Positions 28,017-35,312 of a stretch of DNA of 64,000 nucleotides are shown piece by piece (positions within the stretch are counted from its first letter, which is position 1; each line of letters opens with the position of its first letter). Both the position numbers and the translations under genes were made by a program. This stretch comes from Candidatus Azambacteria bacterium (GTDB taxonomy: Bacteria; Patescibacteriota; Minisyncoccia; GWC2-36-17; WO2-46-25), in assembly GCA_016200965.1 (NCBI GenBank), contig JACQDT010000021.1, positions 86 through 64,085 of the forward strand. The letters are read 5' to 3'. Below the pieces are notes generated by a model. It did no database searches. It worked only from the letters and a program-made list of their open reading frames with translations, and was not told the origin of the DNA.

Positions 28017-28643
28017 ATGAGTATTTTTATCGTCATTGAAGGAATAGAATGCGCGGGAAAAACGACACAAATCAAAAAAGTTGCCTCCGCGCTTGAAGCC
28101 AAAGGACATAAAACAGTCACCATGAGGGAGCCGGGAAGCTCGCAAATAGGGGAGCAAATCCGTACGATTCTCAAAGACCCGTCCCATAAAGAAAGCATGG
28201 ATCCGCTCACCAGCTTATTTTTATTCAATGCGGCGCGACGGCAATTCGTGAAAGAGATTGTGAAACCCGCTCTCAAAAGGGGAGAGGTCGTTCTTTCTGA
28301 CAGATTTTTTCTAAGCACCATCGCGTATCAGGGATACGCCGAAGGAGCGGATAAAGAATTCGTGCGCTCCGTCTGCGCCAAGACGGTGGAAGGATGCATG
28401 CCGAAAAAGACGTTCCTCCTTGATATCGGCATACAAGAAATGAAAAAGCGGTTGCTCGCGCGCGGAGGAATGGAGCACGACCGCTACGACCAAATGGATA
28501 TCTCGTTCCACGAAAAAGTAAGGGAAGGGTATCTTACGGAATGGGAGAAAAATAAGTCGCTCATTGAGCGCATCAACGGCGAGCGGAGCGAGGAAGAAAT
28601 CACGCAGGACATTTTACAAAGAATCTTGCTCTTGTTATCATAA
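28017..28643 (+). CDS. tmk: Thymidylate kinase
   Basis: IVIEGIECAGKTTQ P-loop, DRF motif. Confidence 0.88.
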   Translation: MSIFIVIEGIECAGKTTQIKKVASALEAKGHKTVTMREPGSSQIGEQIRTILKDPSHKESMDPLTSLFLFNAARRQFVKEIVKPALKRGEVVLSDRFFLSTIAYQGYAEGADKEFVRSVCAKTVEGCMPKKTFLLDIGIQEMKKRLLARGGMEHDRYDQMDISFHEKVREGYLTEWEKNKSLIERINGERSEEEITQDILQRILLLLS

Positions 28644-28648
28644 CAGCC

Positions 28649-29227
28649 ATGATTTTATCCGACCGCGACATGAAGCAATATATCAAGGAAGGGAAGCTCA
28701 AATTCGAGCCCGTTTTGACGCCCGATCAGATCGGGCCGGCCTCCATTGACCTGAAACTTTCAAACGTGTTTAAGATTTTCAAGCCGGAACGGTATCTGAA
28801 TCTCGATGTGAAAAAAGGCATCCCCGACGACTACATGGAAAAGGTGGTGATAAAGGACCATGAGCCGTTCATTCTGCACCCGCATATGTTCGCGCTTGCC
28901 GCGACCAAAGAACGCATCACCGTTCCCGCCGACCTTTCGGTGAAGGTGGAAGGCAAAAGCACGCTCGCGCGCATGGGGCTTTTAGTGCATACGGCGGGGT
29001 TTGTGGATCCCGGCTTTGAAGGGGTCATTACCCTTGAGCTTTCCAACCAGTCAAATCTGCCCATCGCTATCTATCCGGGCATGTACGTCTGCCAGATCAA
29101 CTGCCAAATGCTTTCCAGCCCCGCGGAACGTCCGTACAACATACGGAAAAAATCCCTCTATTCAAACAAAGTGGCGGAGCCAGGCACCGCCAATACCGCG
29201 AATTTATTTGAGAAAAGCTCTCAATAA
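28649..29227 (+). CDS. dcd: dCTP deaminase
   Basis: N-terminal ILSDRD...GPASIDLKL and trimeric dUTPase-fold motifs (GFVDPGFEG); 192 aa. Confidence 0.88.
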   Translation: MILSDRDMKQYIKEGKLKFEPVLTPDQIGPASIDLKLSNVFKIFKPERYLNLDVKKGIPDDYMEKVVIKDHEPFILHPHMFALAATKERITVPADLSVKVEGKSTLARMGLLVHTAGFVDPGFEGVITLELSNQSNLPIAIYPGMYVCQINCQMLSSPAERPYNIRKKSLYSNKVAEPGTANTANLFEKSSQ

Positions 29228-29998
29228 ATTTTTAAAGAGATAGGCAACAGTCAGGGGGCCGACGCCACCCGGAACTGGCGTCACTATTTTTGCCTGTCTT
29301 GAAACGCGGGCGACATCAACGTCGCCTTTTATTTTTCCCTTGAAAAATCCCGCGCCCGCGTCAATGACGATAGCTCCTTTTTTCACTTTTTTGATAAGTC
29401 CCGGTTTGCCCACGGCGGAAATCACCGCATCGGCTCGCGCAGTCAACGCGGAAATATTTTTGGTCGTTTTGTCGGCAACCGCAACGTTTGTAAATCCCTT
29501 CCTCAATAAAAAGGTATGGAGCGGTTTTCCGATAAGGCGGCCGTGCCCGACGACAAGAATGGGCGTGTTCCTTTTGATTCTTCCGGCCTTGCCCAGCATA
29601 TGCCAAATCGCCTGCACGGATGGGGAAACGAAAGGCGAATCGCCGCGCAGATTATCCACGTCTTTTTCGGGCGCAATCGCCGAAAGTATTTTTTGGGTAT
29701 TGAATTTCGCAGGGAGAGGAAGCTGGACGATGATGCCGTTTACCGATTTATTTTTATTCAATTTTTTAATGAGTAGGATCACGCGCGTTTCTGACGCGCT
29801 CGCAGGAAGCTGATGCACCGCAAAATTGCATCTTACCGCGCGCGCGGCAAAACCTTTCCGCTTTACATAGTTCAATGAGGCGCGGTTGTTCCCTGCAAGC
29901 ACGACGGCAAGCGTCGGCTTTTGCCGCATCCGTACCGTATACTTCACAATGGCACGCTCAACTATTCGCGCAAGCGGTTTTCCGTATAAAAGCAACAT
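29204..29998 (-). CDS. folD: Bifunctional 5,10-methylene-THF dehydrogenase/cyclohydrolase
   Basis: YVKRK, GIIVQLPLP and PVPGGVGPLTVA motifs. Confidence 0.9.
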   Translation of the reverse strand: MLLLYGKPLARIVERAIVKYTVRMRQKPTLAVVLAGNNRASLNYVKRKGFAARAVRCNFAVHQLPASASETRVILLIKKLNKNKSVNGIIVQLPLPAKFNTQKILSAIAPEKDVDNLRGDSPFVSPSVQAIWHMLGKAGRIKRNTPILVVGHGRLIGKPLHTFLLRKGFTNVAVADKTTKNISALTARADAVISAVGKPGLIKKVKKGAIVIDAGAGFFKGKIKGDVDVARVSRQAKIVTPVPGGVGPLTVAYLFKNLLRAFLK

Positions 29999-30084: not shown

Positions 30085-30576
30085 TTAAGTTTCTTGAGAA
30101 GCCACCTTCACGACGGCAAATTTGAAAGAGGATCTCAGACATTCTTTTGGCGCATAGAAGGTGAGAACCCAATCCCATTGAGGAACCGAGGTGGCGACAT
30201 GGCAACCCTTATGATTGTCGCCAAGAGCAACCACCTGTTGCAGTAGGGAAAGTTCGCTGTAGTCCTCGACCTTTTCATCACGAAGTTTCTTGAACACCTT
30301 CTTAAAGAGCTGTTCGTGCAAATCAGCAAGCTCAAAACCTGTTGCGAAACGCCAGTGATTTTTGTCGCACCAATCTTGTAGCACCGGAAGAGTTACCTCT
30401 TCTTCCTCATCGCAGATCAACAACCCGATGGTAAGTTTTTCGTGTCTTCCGTGGCTTGGAAGAAGCTCCACCTTATCTCTCGTGAGACCTATCTTTTCAA
30501 GATCTCCGCCAACGGGAGAAAATCTGATTGGTTCTTGCGAAGATTCAATTTTAAATGTTCGCTCGATTTGCATCAT
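30085..30576 (-). CDS. Hypothetical protein (163 aa)
   Basis: ORF with no recognised family. Confidence 0.5.
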   Translation of the reverse strand: MMQIERTFKIESSQEPIRFSPVGGDLEKIGLTRDKVELLPSHGRHEKLTIGLLICDEEEEVTLPVLQDWCDKNHWRFATGFELADLHEQLFKKVFKKLRDEKVEDYSELSLLQQVVALGDNHKGCHVATSVPQWDWVLTFYAPKECLRSSFKFAVVKVASQET

Positions 30577-30650: not shown

Positions 30651-32267
30651 TTATTTTTCTTCCAACTCGCGTTCTTTCTGCCGCTGTTTTGCTTCAGAGT
30701 CGGCGCGCGCCCATTGGTAGTCGCCGTAGTCCGTGAATTTGAGCATTTCTTTCGCCCAGGGGTAGCGCTGGAGCGTCTGGCGCGCCATTTCCTGGCATAC
30801 TCTGCGATAGGTGGGATGGCCCTGCGGGGTGGTGCGCAGTTCGAACATATGCTGGGCCTCGCGGAGGTTCATGCCCATCGTCCAGCGCATCTTATGGCCC
30901 ATGAGCACGGTGTATTGCGCCACATGCCGTCCGCACGCGCTTTTTACTTTTTTGTACAGCGCTTCCATTTTTTCCCGTATGGCGTCCGCTTTTTCCTGAA
31001 AGCCCGCTTTTCTGATATCGTCGTTATTTTCAAATCCGAGATAGGGATGCAACAGCTGGCGCTGTTGCGTGAGCATCCGGTGGCGCTGGAGGTCGCGGTA
31101 AATCCCAAAGTCGCCGACGATGTCAAAGGTGAGGGGATACCCCGCTTCGAGCGCGCGGTCGGGCCTGTCGCGGCGAGTTTTGCGGTTGCTTACGTAGGTG
31201 TTCAAAATGCGTTCTTTCGCCGCCGCGGGAAGCTTCGCGACTATTTCATGCAATTGCGAAAGGGGGTGTCTGCCGTACGGGTACAGCATCTGAGCGAGCG
31301 TGGACGTATAAAAATCCGCCTGACTGTCAAAAAGCGCGACCGGTTTTTCTGAAGCGGGCTTTATGTCTTTCAATAGTTCGTCGGCGTGTCTTTGCATCTC
31401 CGTCCGCGCTTTCACGAGAAATTCATTTTGCTTTGCGCGTTTCACGAACGTCGGGATCACTTGGTTGAGCGCGCTATGCGCTTTTGCGGCGATATCGCCC
31501 ATTTCAGAGAGTAGGTGCGTGTACAAATGCGACAGCAGATATTGATAAAATCTCCCGTTGCCGAACAGGCCGACATTAGTGAGTGTCGCGGCGGGCAAGA
31601 AAATGCGTATCGTATCGCACGTTTTAGTGCGGATATCGGATTTATACGTGCGGTCAAACGCCTTGAGGTCTTTTTCGTCTTTCAGGTCTGCGCGCTTTTG
31701 TTTTGTTCCTTTCCCGATGACGTCATATTCGGCTTCTTCCATCGGCTTTTGTTTCTGATAAAACTCCTGCATCGGCTCCACCAGCGACGCATATGTTTCA
31801 AACAGTTCGTTCATCACGCGCTCGTATTCGTCTTTCACGGCGCTTTGAGTAACTTCTTTCGGCCGCAAATACCGCCAATTGCCTTCTTCATTTTTATTAT
31901 CGTACACAACATAGCGGGTGGACTGCTCAATGGGGCTTCCGCCGATGCGCCGGTCTTCCACTTCTTTGGTCGCAAGGTTGGAAATCTGCTCCATACTCAC
32001 ATGCGCGCCCTCAAGCTCGCCGACGGAGTCGTCGCCGTAGGCGATCAAGATGCGCTCAATCACTTCCGCCGCTTTCACCGCGTCAAGCACGCCGTCTTTG
32101 ATGAACTCTTTCAGGAATGTTTCCAAAAAACTGCCCTGCGCCCGCGAATAGCGCGCGTATGCCGGCCCGACGATTCCCGTGAGCCCTTTGACAGCAAACA
32201 CATTGGACTCGGGGTGAGTCACATACTGTTTGAGCACGGCCAATTCTTCTTGTGTGAAGCGTGACAT
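30651..32267 (-). CDS. ThyX-like (FAD-dependent thymidylate synthase family), unusually long tandem-domain form
   Basis: N half carries ..RRIGGSPIEQSTRY.. and C half ..QRHRMLTQQRQLL.. (halves of the ThyX RHRx7S..RY signature); sits in the tmk/dcd/folD/glyA cluster. Confidence 0.5.
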   Translation of the reverse strand: MSRFTQEELAVLKQYVTHPESNVFAVKGLTGIVGPAYARYSRAQGSFLETFLKEFIKDGVLDAVKAAEVIERILIAYGDDSVGELEGAHVSMEQISNLATKEVEDRRIGGSPIEQSTRYVVYDNKNEEGNWRYLRPKEVTQSAVKDEYERVMNELFETYASLVEPMQEFYQKQKPMEEAEYDVIGKGTKQKRADLKDEKDLKAFDRTYKSDIRTKTCDTIRIFLPAATLTNVGLFGNGRFYQYLLSHLYTHLLSEMGDIAAKAHSALNQVIPTFVKRAKQNEFLVKARTEMQRHADELLKDIKPASEKPVALFDSQADFYTSTLAQMLYPYGRHPLSQLHEIVAKLPAAAKERILNTYVSNRKTRRDRPDRALEAGYPLTFDIVGDFGIYRDLQRHRMLTQQRQLLHPYLGFENNDDIRKAGFQEKADAIREKMEALYKKVKSACGRHVAQYTVLMGHKMRWTMGMNLREAQHMFELRTTPQGHPTYRRVCQEMARQTLQRYPWAKEMLKFTDYGDYQWARADSEAKQRQKERELEEK

Positions 32268-32299
32268 ATGAATATGGTATCGGGATTTTTAAAAAAGAA

Positions 32300-32367
32300 C
32301 AAGCACCCAAATGATATTGAGTGCTTGCCTTTTTACTTATTTAATTCTTCGGAAGTCGGACTTCCGA
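32300..32367. terminator. Two hairpins downstream of the 32385-32633 gene; the first with T-runs on both strands
   Basis: caagcac..gtgcttg + cctttttac; perfect palindrome ttcggaagtc g gacttccgaa. Confidence 0.5.
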
Positions 32368-32384
32368 AATCTAAAGTTTCTTGC

Positions 32385-32633
32385 TTAACGCACGCTTTTG
32401 ATATGTGAGGCGAACATCTTAATTTCCGGTGTGAGTTTGCCAATTACAGCAGATGAATGTTGACATTCTGAGATATTGCAGGAATTCTGACGTTGAGATA
32501 TCCATTGTTTGAGAGATTTAATCGCCTCTTTCTTGGTTTGTTTCTCGGTTTTTGCTAACTCAAGGAAAGATGCTGCGCAATCATGTCCGCTTCCACTTGA
32601 TGCGTGCTGCAGGGTCGCATACATTTTTTTCAT
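32385..32633 (-). CDS. Hypothetical small Cys-containing protein (82 aa)
   Basis: ORF with nearby terminators; no family recognised. Confidence 0.45.
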   Translation of the reverse strand: MKKMYATLQHASSGSGHDCAASFLELAKTEKQTKKEAIKSLKQWISQRQNSCNISECQHSSAVIGKLTPEIKMFASHIKSVR

Positions 32634-32709
32634 TATTCCCTCCTTTTGTAAAAGACCTCCCTAATTTCTCTGTAGGAATAAGATATAATATTTTTCCAGA
32701 TTAGTCAAT

Positions 32710-33945
32710 TCAAAAAGCTCTCTTTCGTAATAGCTCGTTTACTGAACTCCGTGTTTTCTCTTTCTGTCCCTCCGTTGGATTTTTCAACAAATCCGCAATC
32801 AGTTTGCCGATGGTTTTCATTTCGGGTTCTTTCATGCCACGAGCGGTGAGGGCGGGGGTGCCGAGGCGGATGCCGGATGGGTCGGCGGGTTTGCGAGTGT
32901 CAAAGGGAATCATGTTGAAATTGGTGTAAATACCACACTCGGCAAGCGCATCGGCACCTTGTTTGCCCGAAATGCCGAGGCCTGTGCAATCAATGATCAT
33001 CAAATGCGTGTCGGTGCCGCCCGATACCAGGCGCAGGCCTTTTGCCATTAGCGCGTTCGCGAGCGCTTTCGCGTTTTTAGCGACCTGCTGTTGATACTTT
33101 TTATACTCATCCGTCATCGCCTCTTTGAAACATACCGCTTTTGCGGCGATGATATGTTCCAGTGGCCCGCCTTGCATGCCGGGGAACACCGCTTTGTCTA
33201 TTTTCGCCGCGTGTTCGGCTTTGGAAAGGATGATGGCGCTTCTGGGGCCGCGGAGCGTTTTGGTGGTTGTGGTCATGACGACGTCGTGCGTCGGGACGGG
33301 GCTTTCGTGCACGCCGCCGACCACGAGCCCCGCGATGTGGGACATATCCGCCATCGCGTACGCGCCGACTTTTTTGGCAATGTCGGCAAAGCGCGAAAAG
33401 GGAACTGCGCGGGGATACGCGGTGAAACCCGAAAGAATAAGTTTCGGCTTCGTTTCCATCGCGAGCTTTTCCACTTTGTCCATATCAAGCATTTCAGTAT
33501 CTTTCTCAACGCCGTAGTGGACAAATTTAAACAGCTTGCCCGACAGCGAAACAGGGTGCCCGTGCGTGAGATGCCCGCCGTGCGCGAGGTTCATTGCCAT
33601 GATCGTATCGCCCGGTTCAAGCAGGGCAAAATAGCACGCGAGGTTCGCCTGCGATCCCGCGTGCGGCTGGACATTGGCGTGTTCCGCGCCGAACAACTGC
33701 TTCGCGCGGTCTATTGCAAGCTGTTCTATCTTATCTATGTATGCACTGCCGGTGTAGTACCGCTTGCCCGGATATCCTTCCGCGTATTTGTTGGTCAGCA
33801 CCGTTCCCGCCGCTTCAAGCACGGCAGGGGAGGCGAGGTTTTCAGACGCGATCATCAAAAGCCCTTCGCTTTGGCGCTTTTCTTCCTGCCGGATAAACCC
33901 TTCGAGTTCCGGGTCAAATTGTGGAAGATGGCGCCTCATATGCAT
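32710..33945 (-). CDS. glyA: Serine hydroxymethyltransferase
   Basis: [22 protein letters not shown] and PLP-binding Lys region; 411 aa. Confidence 0.93.
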
Positions 33946-34034: not shown

Positions 34035-35312
34035 TCATAGTATCCTGCCGCGTAATTTTCTATGGTAGGTTATTGCGAATCGGTGCGCTTCATCGCGGAG
34101 GCGCTGGACGAAAAAGAGAAACGGCTTGCCCAATGTTTCGGCGCGTACTGGCCTTGATTTTTTCGCAAAGTATATCTCTTCGTTCTCTTTCGCAAGCGCC
34201 ATAACGAGCTGGGTTTTAGGAAGTACGCGCATTACCGCGCCTAACTGTCCTTTGCCGCCGTCGAGCAGAATAACATCGGGCGCCGGCCATTCGGCATGCC
34301 TCAAGCGCCGTGAAATGACTTCGGCCATCATTTTGGGGTCGTTGGGCATGTCTCCCGAGTATTGTATCCTAAACTTGCGGTACTGGCTTTTCGCGGGAAA
34401 ACCGTTTTCGCATACCACCATGGAGCCGACCGCAAATTTCCCGGAGATATTGGAAATATCATATCCTTCCACGCGGTGTATGTCTCGCGCGGCGCCGAGT
34501 AATTTCTGCAACGCTTCCTGCACAAGCGGCCACTCAGACGAGTTTGTTTTTTCATGCCTCCATACCCGATCAAGCGATGGGCCGTGCGCGAACACTTTTT
34601 TAAGATACTCTATCCGATGTTTATACTCATTCGCTTTTGTGAATTCCTCTTTGCGCGCCGATTTTTTCATCGCTTTTTCAAGCCGCCCGAGAATGCCTTT
34701 TCGCGCGCCGCTTAAGATATGTAAAATGGCGCTGATGTTCTTTTCAGTGCGCACGTACATTTTAGGATCCGCGCATGCGCCTGTGCATCTTCCGAGATGA
34801 TAATCAAAACACGCGCGTTTTAACGATAAAGGCCGCGCGGCGCAATACGGATAGGCCGCGCGCAACATGCGCACGGTATAGCGCAGGGCGAACGCGTCGG
34901 TGAACGGCCCCACACAAAGCGAGTAGCGAGTAGGGATTTTCGTTGGTTGATGAGTGATAAAAATGCGCGGATACGGCTTTTCATTCGTAGCGCACGCATA
35001 GGCATAATTTTTATCATCCCTGAAGATCACGTTAAAGCGGGGATGATGTTTTTTTATAAGCTTCGCTTCTTCTATAAGCGCATCTATTTCCGAGCCGCAC
35101 ACTTTCCATCCAATAGCGCGTATCGCCGTGCGCAACGCTTCCGTTTTCGGCGACTCGCCTTTTATTTTGGTGAAATACTGCCGTACCCGCGCGCGCAGAA
35201 CCAGCGCTTTGCCGATGTAGATGATCGTATCGGCTTTATCTTTGAAAAAATAAACACCCGGCTTTTGGGGAACTGCTTTCAGTTTTGCTTTCAACCTTTC
35301 CATATAAAGCAA
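34035..35312 (-). CDS. uvrC: UvrC-like excinuclease (GIY-YIG plus endonuclease domain; short, apparently lacking the C-terminal HhH region)
   Basis: GVYFFKDKADTIIYIGKA GIY-YIG; later EGYDISNISG...DGGKGQL UvrC endonuclease motifs; 425 aa vs ~600 typical. Confidence 0.75.
   Translation of the reverse strand: MLYMERLKAKLKAVPQKPGVYFFKDKADTIIYIGKALVLRARVRQYFTKIKGESPKTEALRTAIRAIGWKVCGSEIDALIEEAKLIKKHHPRFNVIFRDDKNYAYACATNEKPYPRIFITHQPTKIPTRYSLCVGPFTDAFALRYTVRMLRAAYPYCAARPLSLKRACFDYHLGRCTGACADPKMYVRTEKNISAILHILSGARKGILGRLEKAMKKSARKEEFTKANEYKHRIEYLKKVFAHGPSLDRVWRHEKTNSSEWPLVQEALQKLLGAARDIHRVEGYDISNISGKFAVGSMVVCENGFPAKSQYRKFRIQYSGDMPNDPKMMAEVISRRLRHAEWPAPDVILLDGGKGQLGAVMRVLPKTQLVMALAKENEEIYFAKKSRPVRAETLGKPFLFFVQRLRDEAHRFAITYHRKLRGRIL

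Follow-up and report, generated by a model that had tools for sequence, protein, structure and literature searches.

Chlamydia trachomatis ThyX was obtained in purified form after cloning, and its activity was both assayed and inhibited (PMC3498832). Chlamydia is also tabulated as lacking both ThyA and Tdk (PMC4913046 Table 1). A 'domain duplication' in the ThyX of Chloroflexi was remarked on by Valas & Bourne 2009 (PMC3224940), in a paper without residue analysis that called the duplicated ThyX uncharacterised. Here we describe a thyX gene in a stretch of 64,000 nucleotides (64 kb; hereafter the window) from a Candidatus Azambacteria bacterium, a member of the Patescibacteria or Candidate Phyla Radiation (CPR). 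The gene occupies positions 30651..32267 on the minus strand, and its product is an internally duplicated ThyX whose two halves retain different parts of the active site. We consider it probable, from sequence comparison and a predicted structure, that the thymidylate (dTMP) synthase of this bacterium is a duplicated ThyX of the Chlamydia type, with its halves arranged as an intramolecular pseudo-dimer and two chains forming a predicted pseudo-tetramer with two sites.

The active site of canonical ThyX is built from three identical subunits, whose contributions are referred to here as roles A, B and C (PMC6514825 section 3.1). The subunit in role A gives the RHR of the signature motif together with R199 in Mycobacterium tuberculosis (Mtb) or R174 in Thermotoga maritima (Tm), which touch the phosphates of flavin adenine dinucleotide (FAD), the flavin and the uracil. 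The subunit in role B gives a Ser and R190 (Mtb) or R165 (Tm), both touching the FAD phosphates. In role C, the backbone of Q103 together with R87, S105, R107 and Y108 (Mtb numbering) constitutes the loop that holds deoxyuridine monophosphate (dUMP) and the tyrosine lid (PMC6514825 section 3.1).

Two Thy1 domains in a single chain

The thyX gene is an uninterrupted open reading frame (ORF) with an ATG start that encodes 538 amino acids (aa) followed by a stop codon. Its product is 100% identical to the NCBI entry 'FAD-dependent thymidylate synthase [Candidatus Azambacteria bacterium]' (P0001, 64,992-bp contig). An earlier note on this DNA had put the protein at 538 aa, about twice the length of canonical ThyX, and the ORF bears this out, the canonical domain being 220-250 aa. 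The description 'unusually long' in the same note holds in comparison with canonical ThyX but not within the protein's own very large family, where this length is normal.

The Pfam Thy1 profile (PF02511) matched the whole protein in two stretches (E=6.4e-31, 108.1 bits). When the halves were searched separately, residues 1-269 scored 54.1 bits (E=2.3e-14) and residues 270-538 scored 55.8 bits (E=6.8e-15), so that both matched the profile, whose gathering cutoff is 24.8 bits. Because each half exceeds the Thy1 cutoff by itself, the protein is a tandem ThyX-domain protein, as the earlier note had suspected from short motifs. The Pfam envelope of the N-half domain comprises residues 62-273 (31449..32084; this and all further thyX features lie on the minus strand) and profile positions 34-191 of 191. 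The core of the C-half domain comprises residues 379-504 (30756..31133) in the Pfam envelope, and hhalign extended this domain to approximately residues 299-524.

We predicted the structure of the whole chain with AlphaFold2, using a 72-sequence alignment (A2) that mixes CPR and Chlamydiae branches. The model was compact, with a mean predicted local distance difference test score (pLDDT) of 89.8 and a predicted template modelling score (pTM) of 0.90, and the mutual placement of the two domains is therefore confident. The secondary-structure order strand-helix-motif...helix-strand-helix-helix is repeated in both halves of the model. The top 50 matches of a Foldseek search against the PDB were all chains of ThyX, also called flavin-dependent thymidylate synthase (FDTS), from T. 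maritima, M. tuberculosis, PBCV-1 and T. thermophilus. Each had a probability of 1.00, and the template modelling (TM) scores, for which the targets (about 215 residues) served as the normalising length, were 0.50-0.59. No double-length ThyX chain was present among these top 50 matches or in the PDB sequence searches. The earlier note had raised the idea of an intramolecular pseudo-dimer, and the monomer model agrees with it: the two domains form a single compact body, predicted with confidence and folded like ThyX.

Proteins of this kind are abundant. A word-indexed protein search returned more than 7,800 matches; the top 120 were nearly all 530-610 aa long (two were shorter, one of these being labelled partial), and the named ones came mostly from Patescibacteria. 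An exhaustive search of 1.84 billion cluster representatives gave 3,054 matches at E<=1e-3, 1,528 at E<=1e-10 and 443 at E<=1e-30, and the best 150 representatives were nearly all 500-620 aa long. Two Thy1 stretches were also identified by Pfam in the C. trachomatis (P0241) and C. pneumoniae (P0255) proteins and in P0097 and P0185. Relatives with 50-58% identity were found in metagenome-assembled genomes (MAGs) titled 'uncultured Gammaproteobacteria', 'Woesearchaeota' and 'Methanosarcinales' (loci L011, L015-L017, L019, L027, L034, L058 and others); these titles are probably taxonomic mislabels from automated binning and not real horizontal spread.

Ten family members were longer still (667-781 aa). 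Four of them carry an N-terminal thymidylate kinase (P0276, P0332, P0333 and P0390; 764-781 aa) and one carries an N-terminal dUTPase (P0321; 703 aa), whereas the extensions of P0357, P0275, P0271, P0353 and P0377 had no Pfam match. Because the fused thymidylate kinase (Tmk) and dUTPase act just after and just before dTMP synthesis, respectively, we argue that the duplicated ThyX is a real thymidylate synthase, and the Tmk-ThyX and dUTPase-ThyX fusions provide genomic confirmation of its role in dTMP synthesis.

Partition of the active site between the halves

Residues were mapped by hhalign of the half profiles against T. maritima TM0449, which supplies the reference numbering and whose sequence was checked to be identical to PDB 1KQ4 over chain residues 13-232. 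Conservation was counted in an alignment of 137 diverse sequences of the family, with identity to the query as low as about 30% in some; this alignment was cut into halves. Invariance was also scored in a CPR-rich family alignment (A1) and in A2. The contiguous RHRx7S(xRY) motif was incomplete in either half, and the full set of residues was obtained only from the N and C halves combined.

The N half contains a degenerate motif, D105-R-R107-I-G-G-S-P-I-E114-Q-S116-T-R118-Y119 (31911..31955), in which the E-x-S-x-R-Y dUMP-binding loop is kept and one Arg of the RHR is left. The peptide IEQSTRY, in which the earlier note had recognised the Ser/RY part of the motif, is found at residues 113-119. 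E114, S116, R118 and Y119 correspond by hhalign to Tm E86, S88, R90 and Y91, and they are conserved in 135, 137, 137 and 135 of the 137 sequences, respectively, with R107 conserved in all 137. Further along the N half, D218, R221 and P225 align with Tm E144, R147 and P151 and are all invariant in A1 and A2; the codon of R221, the equivalent of Tm R147, lies at 31605..31607. S81, at the position of Tm T55, is likewise invariant in both alignments. Two canonical arginines are lost from the N half, R78 (D105 is found there) and R174 (L248).

The C half shows the reverse pattern. Its motif, R395-H396-R397-M-L-T-Q-Q-R-Q-L-L-H-P (31044..31085; the peptide RHRMLTQQRQLL is found at residues 395-406), has a complete RHR that corresponds to Tm R78-H79-R80 and is conserved in 137, 132 and 136 of the 137 sequences. 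Equivalents of E86, S88, R90 and Y91 are missing, with R403, L405, H407 and P408 in their places, and R147 is lost as well, replaced by Q451. As claimed in the earlier note, the C half thus carries the RHR without the Ser, whose position is taken by L405. A second C-half element, N467-L-R469...E476-L-R478...Q482-G-H484 (30816..30869), is equivalent to Tm N163/R165/R174/H178, which contact FAD and uracil; N467 is conserved in 127, R469 in 135, R478 in 135 and H484 in 134 of the 137 sequences. E374 corresponds to Tm E58 and is invariant in A1 and A2. The global alignment of the C-half profile with TM0449 had a probability of 95% (E=8e-9, 205 columns).

By comparison with the T. maritima enzyme, the RHR/R174 set is therefore found in the C half and the E-x-S-x-R-Y/R147 set in the N half, which supports the proposal of complementary active-site residues in the earlier note. 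A chance origin of the split motif is excluded because little or no variation in it is seen among the 137 diverse homologues; the split signature is also invariant in A1 and A2.

This distribution suggests how the protein would assemble. In the proposed arrangement, the two diverged ThyX domains of the 538-aa chain would pack against each other as an intramolecular pseudo-dimer. The C half would fill role A and provide the arginine of role B (the equivalents of RHR, N163/R165 and R174), whereas the N half would fill role C (the equivalents of E86/S88/R90/Y91 and R147) and provide the Ser/Thr position of role B. The evidence on role B is conflicting: R469 is kept in the C half in 135 of the 137 sequences, and the R239 position of the N half holds R in 84 sequences and Q in 51, but the Ser/Thr position is fitted by S81 of the N half, with R371 there in the C half. 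Two chains would then associate into a pseudo-tetramer. Instead of four complete FAD/dUMP sites it would have two, the other two being degenerate pseudo-sites. Since the A and C partners of a D2 site must differ in type, the true two-fold axis of the dimer would be one of the other two axes, and either of these would give exactly two complete and two degenerate sites. From the complementary loss of active-site parts we thus predict that the number of catalytic sites per domain is halved and that there are two pseudo-sites. Each complete site would carry out the normal ThyX reaction, in which dUMP is reductively methylated through N5 of reduced FAD with methylenetetrahydrofolate (CH2-THF) as donor. 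We infer the dimer, its number of sites and the activity of the Azambacteria protein from sequence and from the predicted structure.

Several observations weigh against this assignment. The NCBIfam thyX equivalog TIGR02170, a model built from single-domain ThyX enzymes, scored 44.9 bits, below its cutoff of 87.9. With the single sequence as query, phmmer found no ThyX in the PDB at E<=0.01, and the family profile reached E=0.017 at best, over the C-terminal third of each half. From the weak TIGR02170 score and the lack of a PDB match to the single sequence we conclude that both halves have diverged far from canonical ThyX. Alignment of the N half with TM0449 by hhalign had a probability of 5% (E=2e-3), although the register was consistent; the significant evidence for this half is consequently its Pfam match. 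The two halves were marginally alike when compared with each other (hhalign probability 57%, E=1.5e-5). The register of R107 is ambiguous by one residue, to Tm H79 or R80, owing to an indel at G110. This arginine is strictly conserved even though it is the lone RHR survivor in a site predicted to be dead. N237-G238-R239 of the N half is similarly invariant in the 72-sequence set, in a supposedly dead pseudo-site. The invariance of R469 is also awkward if the second role falls to the N half and not to the C half.

The invariant residues that two sites leave over can be accommodated in two other ways. One is that all four pseudo-symmetric sites of the dimer are catalytic, with R403, K101 or an Arg-rich loop of the C half (R362-R371) replacing the canonical residues. 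This would explain why R107, N237-G238-R239 and the loop are invariant where dead sites are expected. However, the C half has L405/H407/P408 in place of the dUMP-loop Ser, Arg and Tyr, and Q451 for R147, whereas R78/H79 are missing from the N half, where R174 is replaced by L248. The PDB moreover contains structures of the single-site T. maritima ThyX mutants S88A, R90A, R174K and Y91F, from which it follows that these positions are regarded as functionally important, and we consider four working sites to be quite improbable. The other possibility starts from the Arg-rich loop itself, R362-K-T-R365-R366-D-R368-P369-D-R371-A-L-E374 (RKTRRDRPDRALE; 31146..31184), which is family-specific and forms a 5-residue insertion relative to Tm H51-E58 according to hhalign. 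R362, R365, R371 and E374 of the loop do not vary in either A1 or A2. Invariance of R366 is complete in A1 and almost complete in A2, and R368 and P369 are invariant in A1 only. The loop may bind phosphate. R107 and N237-G-R239 are still invariant in the pseudo-sites, and the invariant Arg-rich loop is part of the same chain. The duplicated ThyX could be an obligate two-site enzyme whose pseudo-sites now serve in regulation or in binding a second ligand, such as reduced nicotinamide adenine dinucleotide phosphate (NADPH) or an allosteric nucleotide. We regard this as unlikely; if it were true that the pseudo-sites and the loop R362-R371 have gained a function of their own, this would be the residual novel possibility of the system.

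Whether two sites or four are assigned, the protein is taken to make dTMP. A ThyX-fold paralogue with a different role, such as another flavin-dependent nucleotide modification, in a cell that obtains thymidylate by another route, would be in keeping with the score under the NCBIfam thyX equivalog cutoff, with the strong divergence from all solved ThyX structures and with 'UPF0159', the Swiss-Prot-derived name of the Chlamydia orthologues; the genome search, moreover, covered 64 kb. Yet a Chlamydia orthologue has been used as an active ThyX in enzyme assays, in a genus listed without ThyA and Tdk (PMC4913046 Table 1). The family fusions to Tmk and dUTPase, the linkage of the window gene to dcd, tmk, glyA and folD, and the presence of all dUMP-, FAD- and uracil-contact residues across both halves also argue against a paralogue, for which we see very little chance. 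An assembly or annotation artefact, in which two adjacent thyX genes were read as one, or a decaying duplicated pseudogene would have the unusual length in its favour and nothing else. Such an origin is refuted by the thousands of full-length homologues of 500-620 aa from independent assemblies, complete Chlamydia genomes included; the uninterrupted single ORF and the strong residue conservation in both halves also speak against it, and we give it practically no weight. Our preferred interpretation is accordingly still a Chlamydia-type duplicated ThyX with two predicted sites.

Gene neighbourhood

The neighbours tmk, dcd, folD and glyA that had been named in the earlier note were all identified by NCBIfam or Pfam profiles. 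The dTMP kinase gene tmk (28017..28643, plus strand) matched TIGR00041 with 170 bits (cutoff 83) and PF02223 with E=6e-45. The dCTP deaminase gene dcd (28649..29227, plus strand) matched TIGR02274 with 175 bits (cutoff 92.8) and Pfam DCD with E=2e-44. The folD gene for methylenetetrahydrofolate dehydrogenase/cyclohydrolase (29204..29998, minus strand) matched PF00763 and PF02882; its match to the NCBIfam FolD models had E=6e-58, yet fell under every equivalog cutoff. The convergent dcd and folD genes share 24 bp at their 3' ends (29204-29227). On the other side of thyX, glyA (32710..33945, minus strand) encodes serine hydroxymethyltransferase, which would supply CH2-THF, and matched NF000586 with 588 bits (cutoff 335) and Pfam SHMT with E=1.7e-150.

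The presence of these four genes agrees with the claim in the earlier note of a complete route from dCTP to dTDP with its CH2-THF supply, except that the window contains no dedicated gene for the conversion of dUTP to dUMP. This step is unaccounted for in the window unless Dcd is bifunctional, with no dedicated dUTPase gene beside dcd. Searches of the 64-kb window by tblastn with ThyA, Tdk, FolA and Dut query sequences and with T. maritima ThyX (TM0449) gave no match better than E=0.37, so that, as far as the ThyA, Tdk, FolA and Dut queries are sound, no thyA, canonical thyX or tdk was found there.

We also considered tmk-dcd-folD-thyX-glyA as a conserved operon and rejected it. Of 80 related loci, 18 had dcd within 8 kb of thyX and 18 had a weak match to tmk; glyA was this close in 5 loci and folD in 3. 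The arrangement glyA-thyX-folD-dcd was retained only in the close Azambacteria relatives L001 and L002.

The intergenic regions on both sides of thyX vary in length. A 163-aa ORF between thyX and folD (30085-30576, minus strand) matched nothing in Pfam, NCBIfam or PHROGs, and tblastn gave no homologue of it in the 80 related loci. The gap between thyX and folD is about 27 bp in L001, an 82%-identical relative, versus about 600 bp in the window. Given this difference and the lack of a homologue, the 163-aa ORF is a window-specific insertion or an ORFan. The spacer between glyA and thyX (32268-32709) measures about 490 bp here, whereas its length in close relatives runs from 53 bp (L002) through 103 bp (L003) and about 1,026 bp (L004) to about 1,406 bp (L001); it looks like a hot spot of small insertions. 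An 82-aa ORF within this spacer (32385-32633, minus strand) matched no family above any cutoff, and no Rfam RNA was found there. Beyond glyA, a UvrC homologue (34035-35312, minus strand) is short, at 425 aa versus model lengths of about 570-700; its NCBIfam matches form two stretches that skip the middle of the model and end before its C-terminal end.

Comparison with Chlamydia ThyX and canonical enzymes

The architecture described here is already known: NCBI annotates the protein correctly, the family to which it belongs is very large, a Chlamydia member has been studied, and the duplication is in print. Our literature searches on tandem, fused or duplicated ThyX, on UPF0159 and on ThyX of CPR/Patescibacteria returned one relevant sentence, that of Valas & Bourne 2009. 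No map of complementary loss and no two-site prediction was found in the literature searched, whose reach did not extend to Griffin et al. 2005 JBC and Liu & Yang 2004 J Bacteriol. ThyX is a pursued antibacterial target, and the Chlamydia member is a drug-screening target. The duplicated form is that of Chlamydia and apparently of most Patescibacteria. Chlamydia and many CPR bacteria have no other thymidylate synthase, although no structure of a member seems to exist. Since ThyX is an antibacterial target and Chlamydia has the duplicated form, a structure of the duplicated enzyme would be of practical value.

For the comparison with Chlamydia, we took its ThyX to be a protein of about 529 aa and used an approximate sequence as database query. 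This query led to a 529-aa cluster representative that was 93% identical to it, and to proteins of 529-531 aa from other Chlamydia species. Members of the cluster are named 'FAD-dependent thymidylate synthase [Chlamydia trachomatis]', and 'UPF0159 protein' is a further name for the orthologues of C. muridarum (TC_0921) and C. pneumoniae (CPn_0746). In BLASTP, the window protein aligned collinearly with the C. trachomatis representative over residues 4-529, with 35% identity (E=4e-104).

The C. trachomatis ThyX (529 aa) and the window protein thus share the two-Thy1 architecture and are collinear over their full length. Both halves of the split signature are found in the same places. The N-half motif (ARIGGSPLEKSSRYV) has the shared form ...RIGGSP(L/I)E(K/Q)S(S/T)RY, and the C-half motif (DLQRHRILTQERQLL) has the shared form DLQRHR(I/M)LTQ(E/Q)RQLL. 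The two proteins differ in the N half, where about 24 residues of the window protein (approximately residues 175-198, 'EEAEYDVIGKGTKQKRADLKDEKD') have no counterpart in Chlamydia, and a Chlamydia insertion close to residue 57 is missing from the window protein. The hosts also differ, one being a CPR bacterium and the other an intracellular pathogen.

ThyA and the window protein would have the same product, dTMP, but ThyA is unrelated in fold and mechanism, and the window contains no thyA-like sequence at the E value given above. The canonical homotetrameric ThyX enzymes of T. maritima (TM0449; 1O26/1KQ4), M. tuberculosis (2AF6/3GWC) and PBCV-1 (4FZB) have the same fold as each half of the window protein and, once its halves are summed, the same catalytic residues, although the similarity is too low for any phmmer match. 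The FAD/CH2-THF chemistry is presumably shared. Canonical ThyX has one domain of 220-250 aa per chain, a complete RHRx7S motif and four identical sites per tetramer. In the window protein, by contrast, each chain has two diverged domains and the motif is split between them, and two sites are predicted for the dimer.

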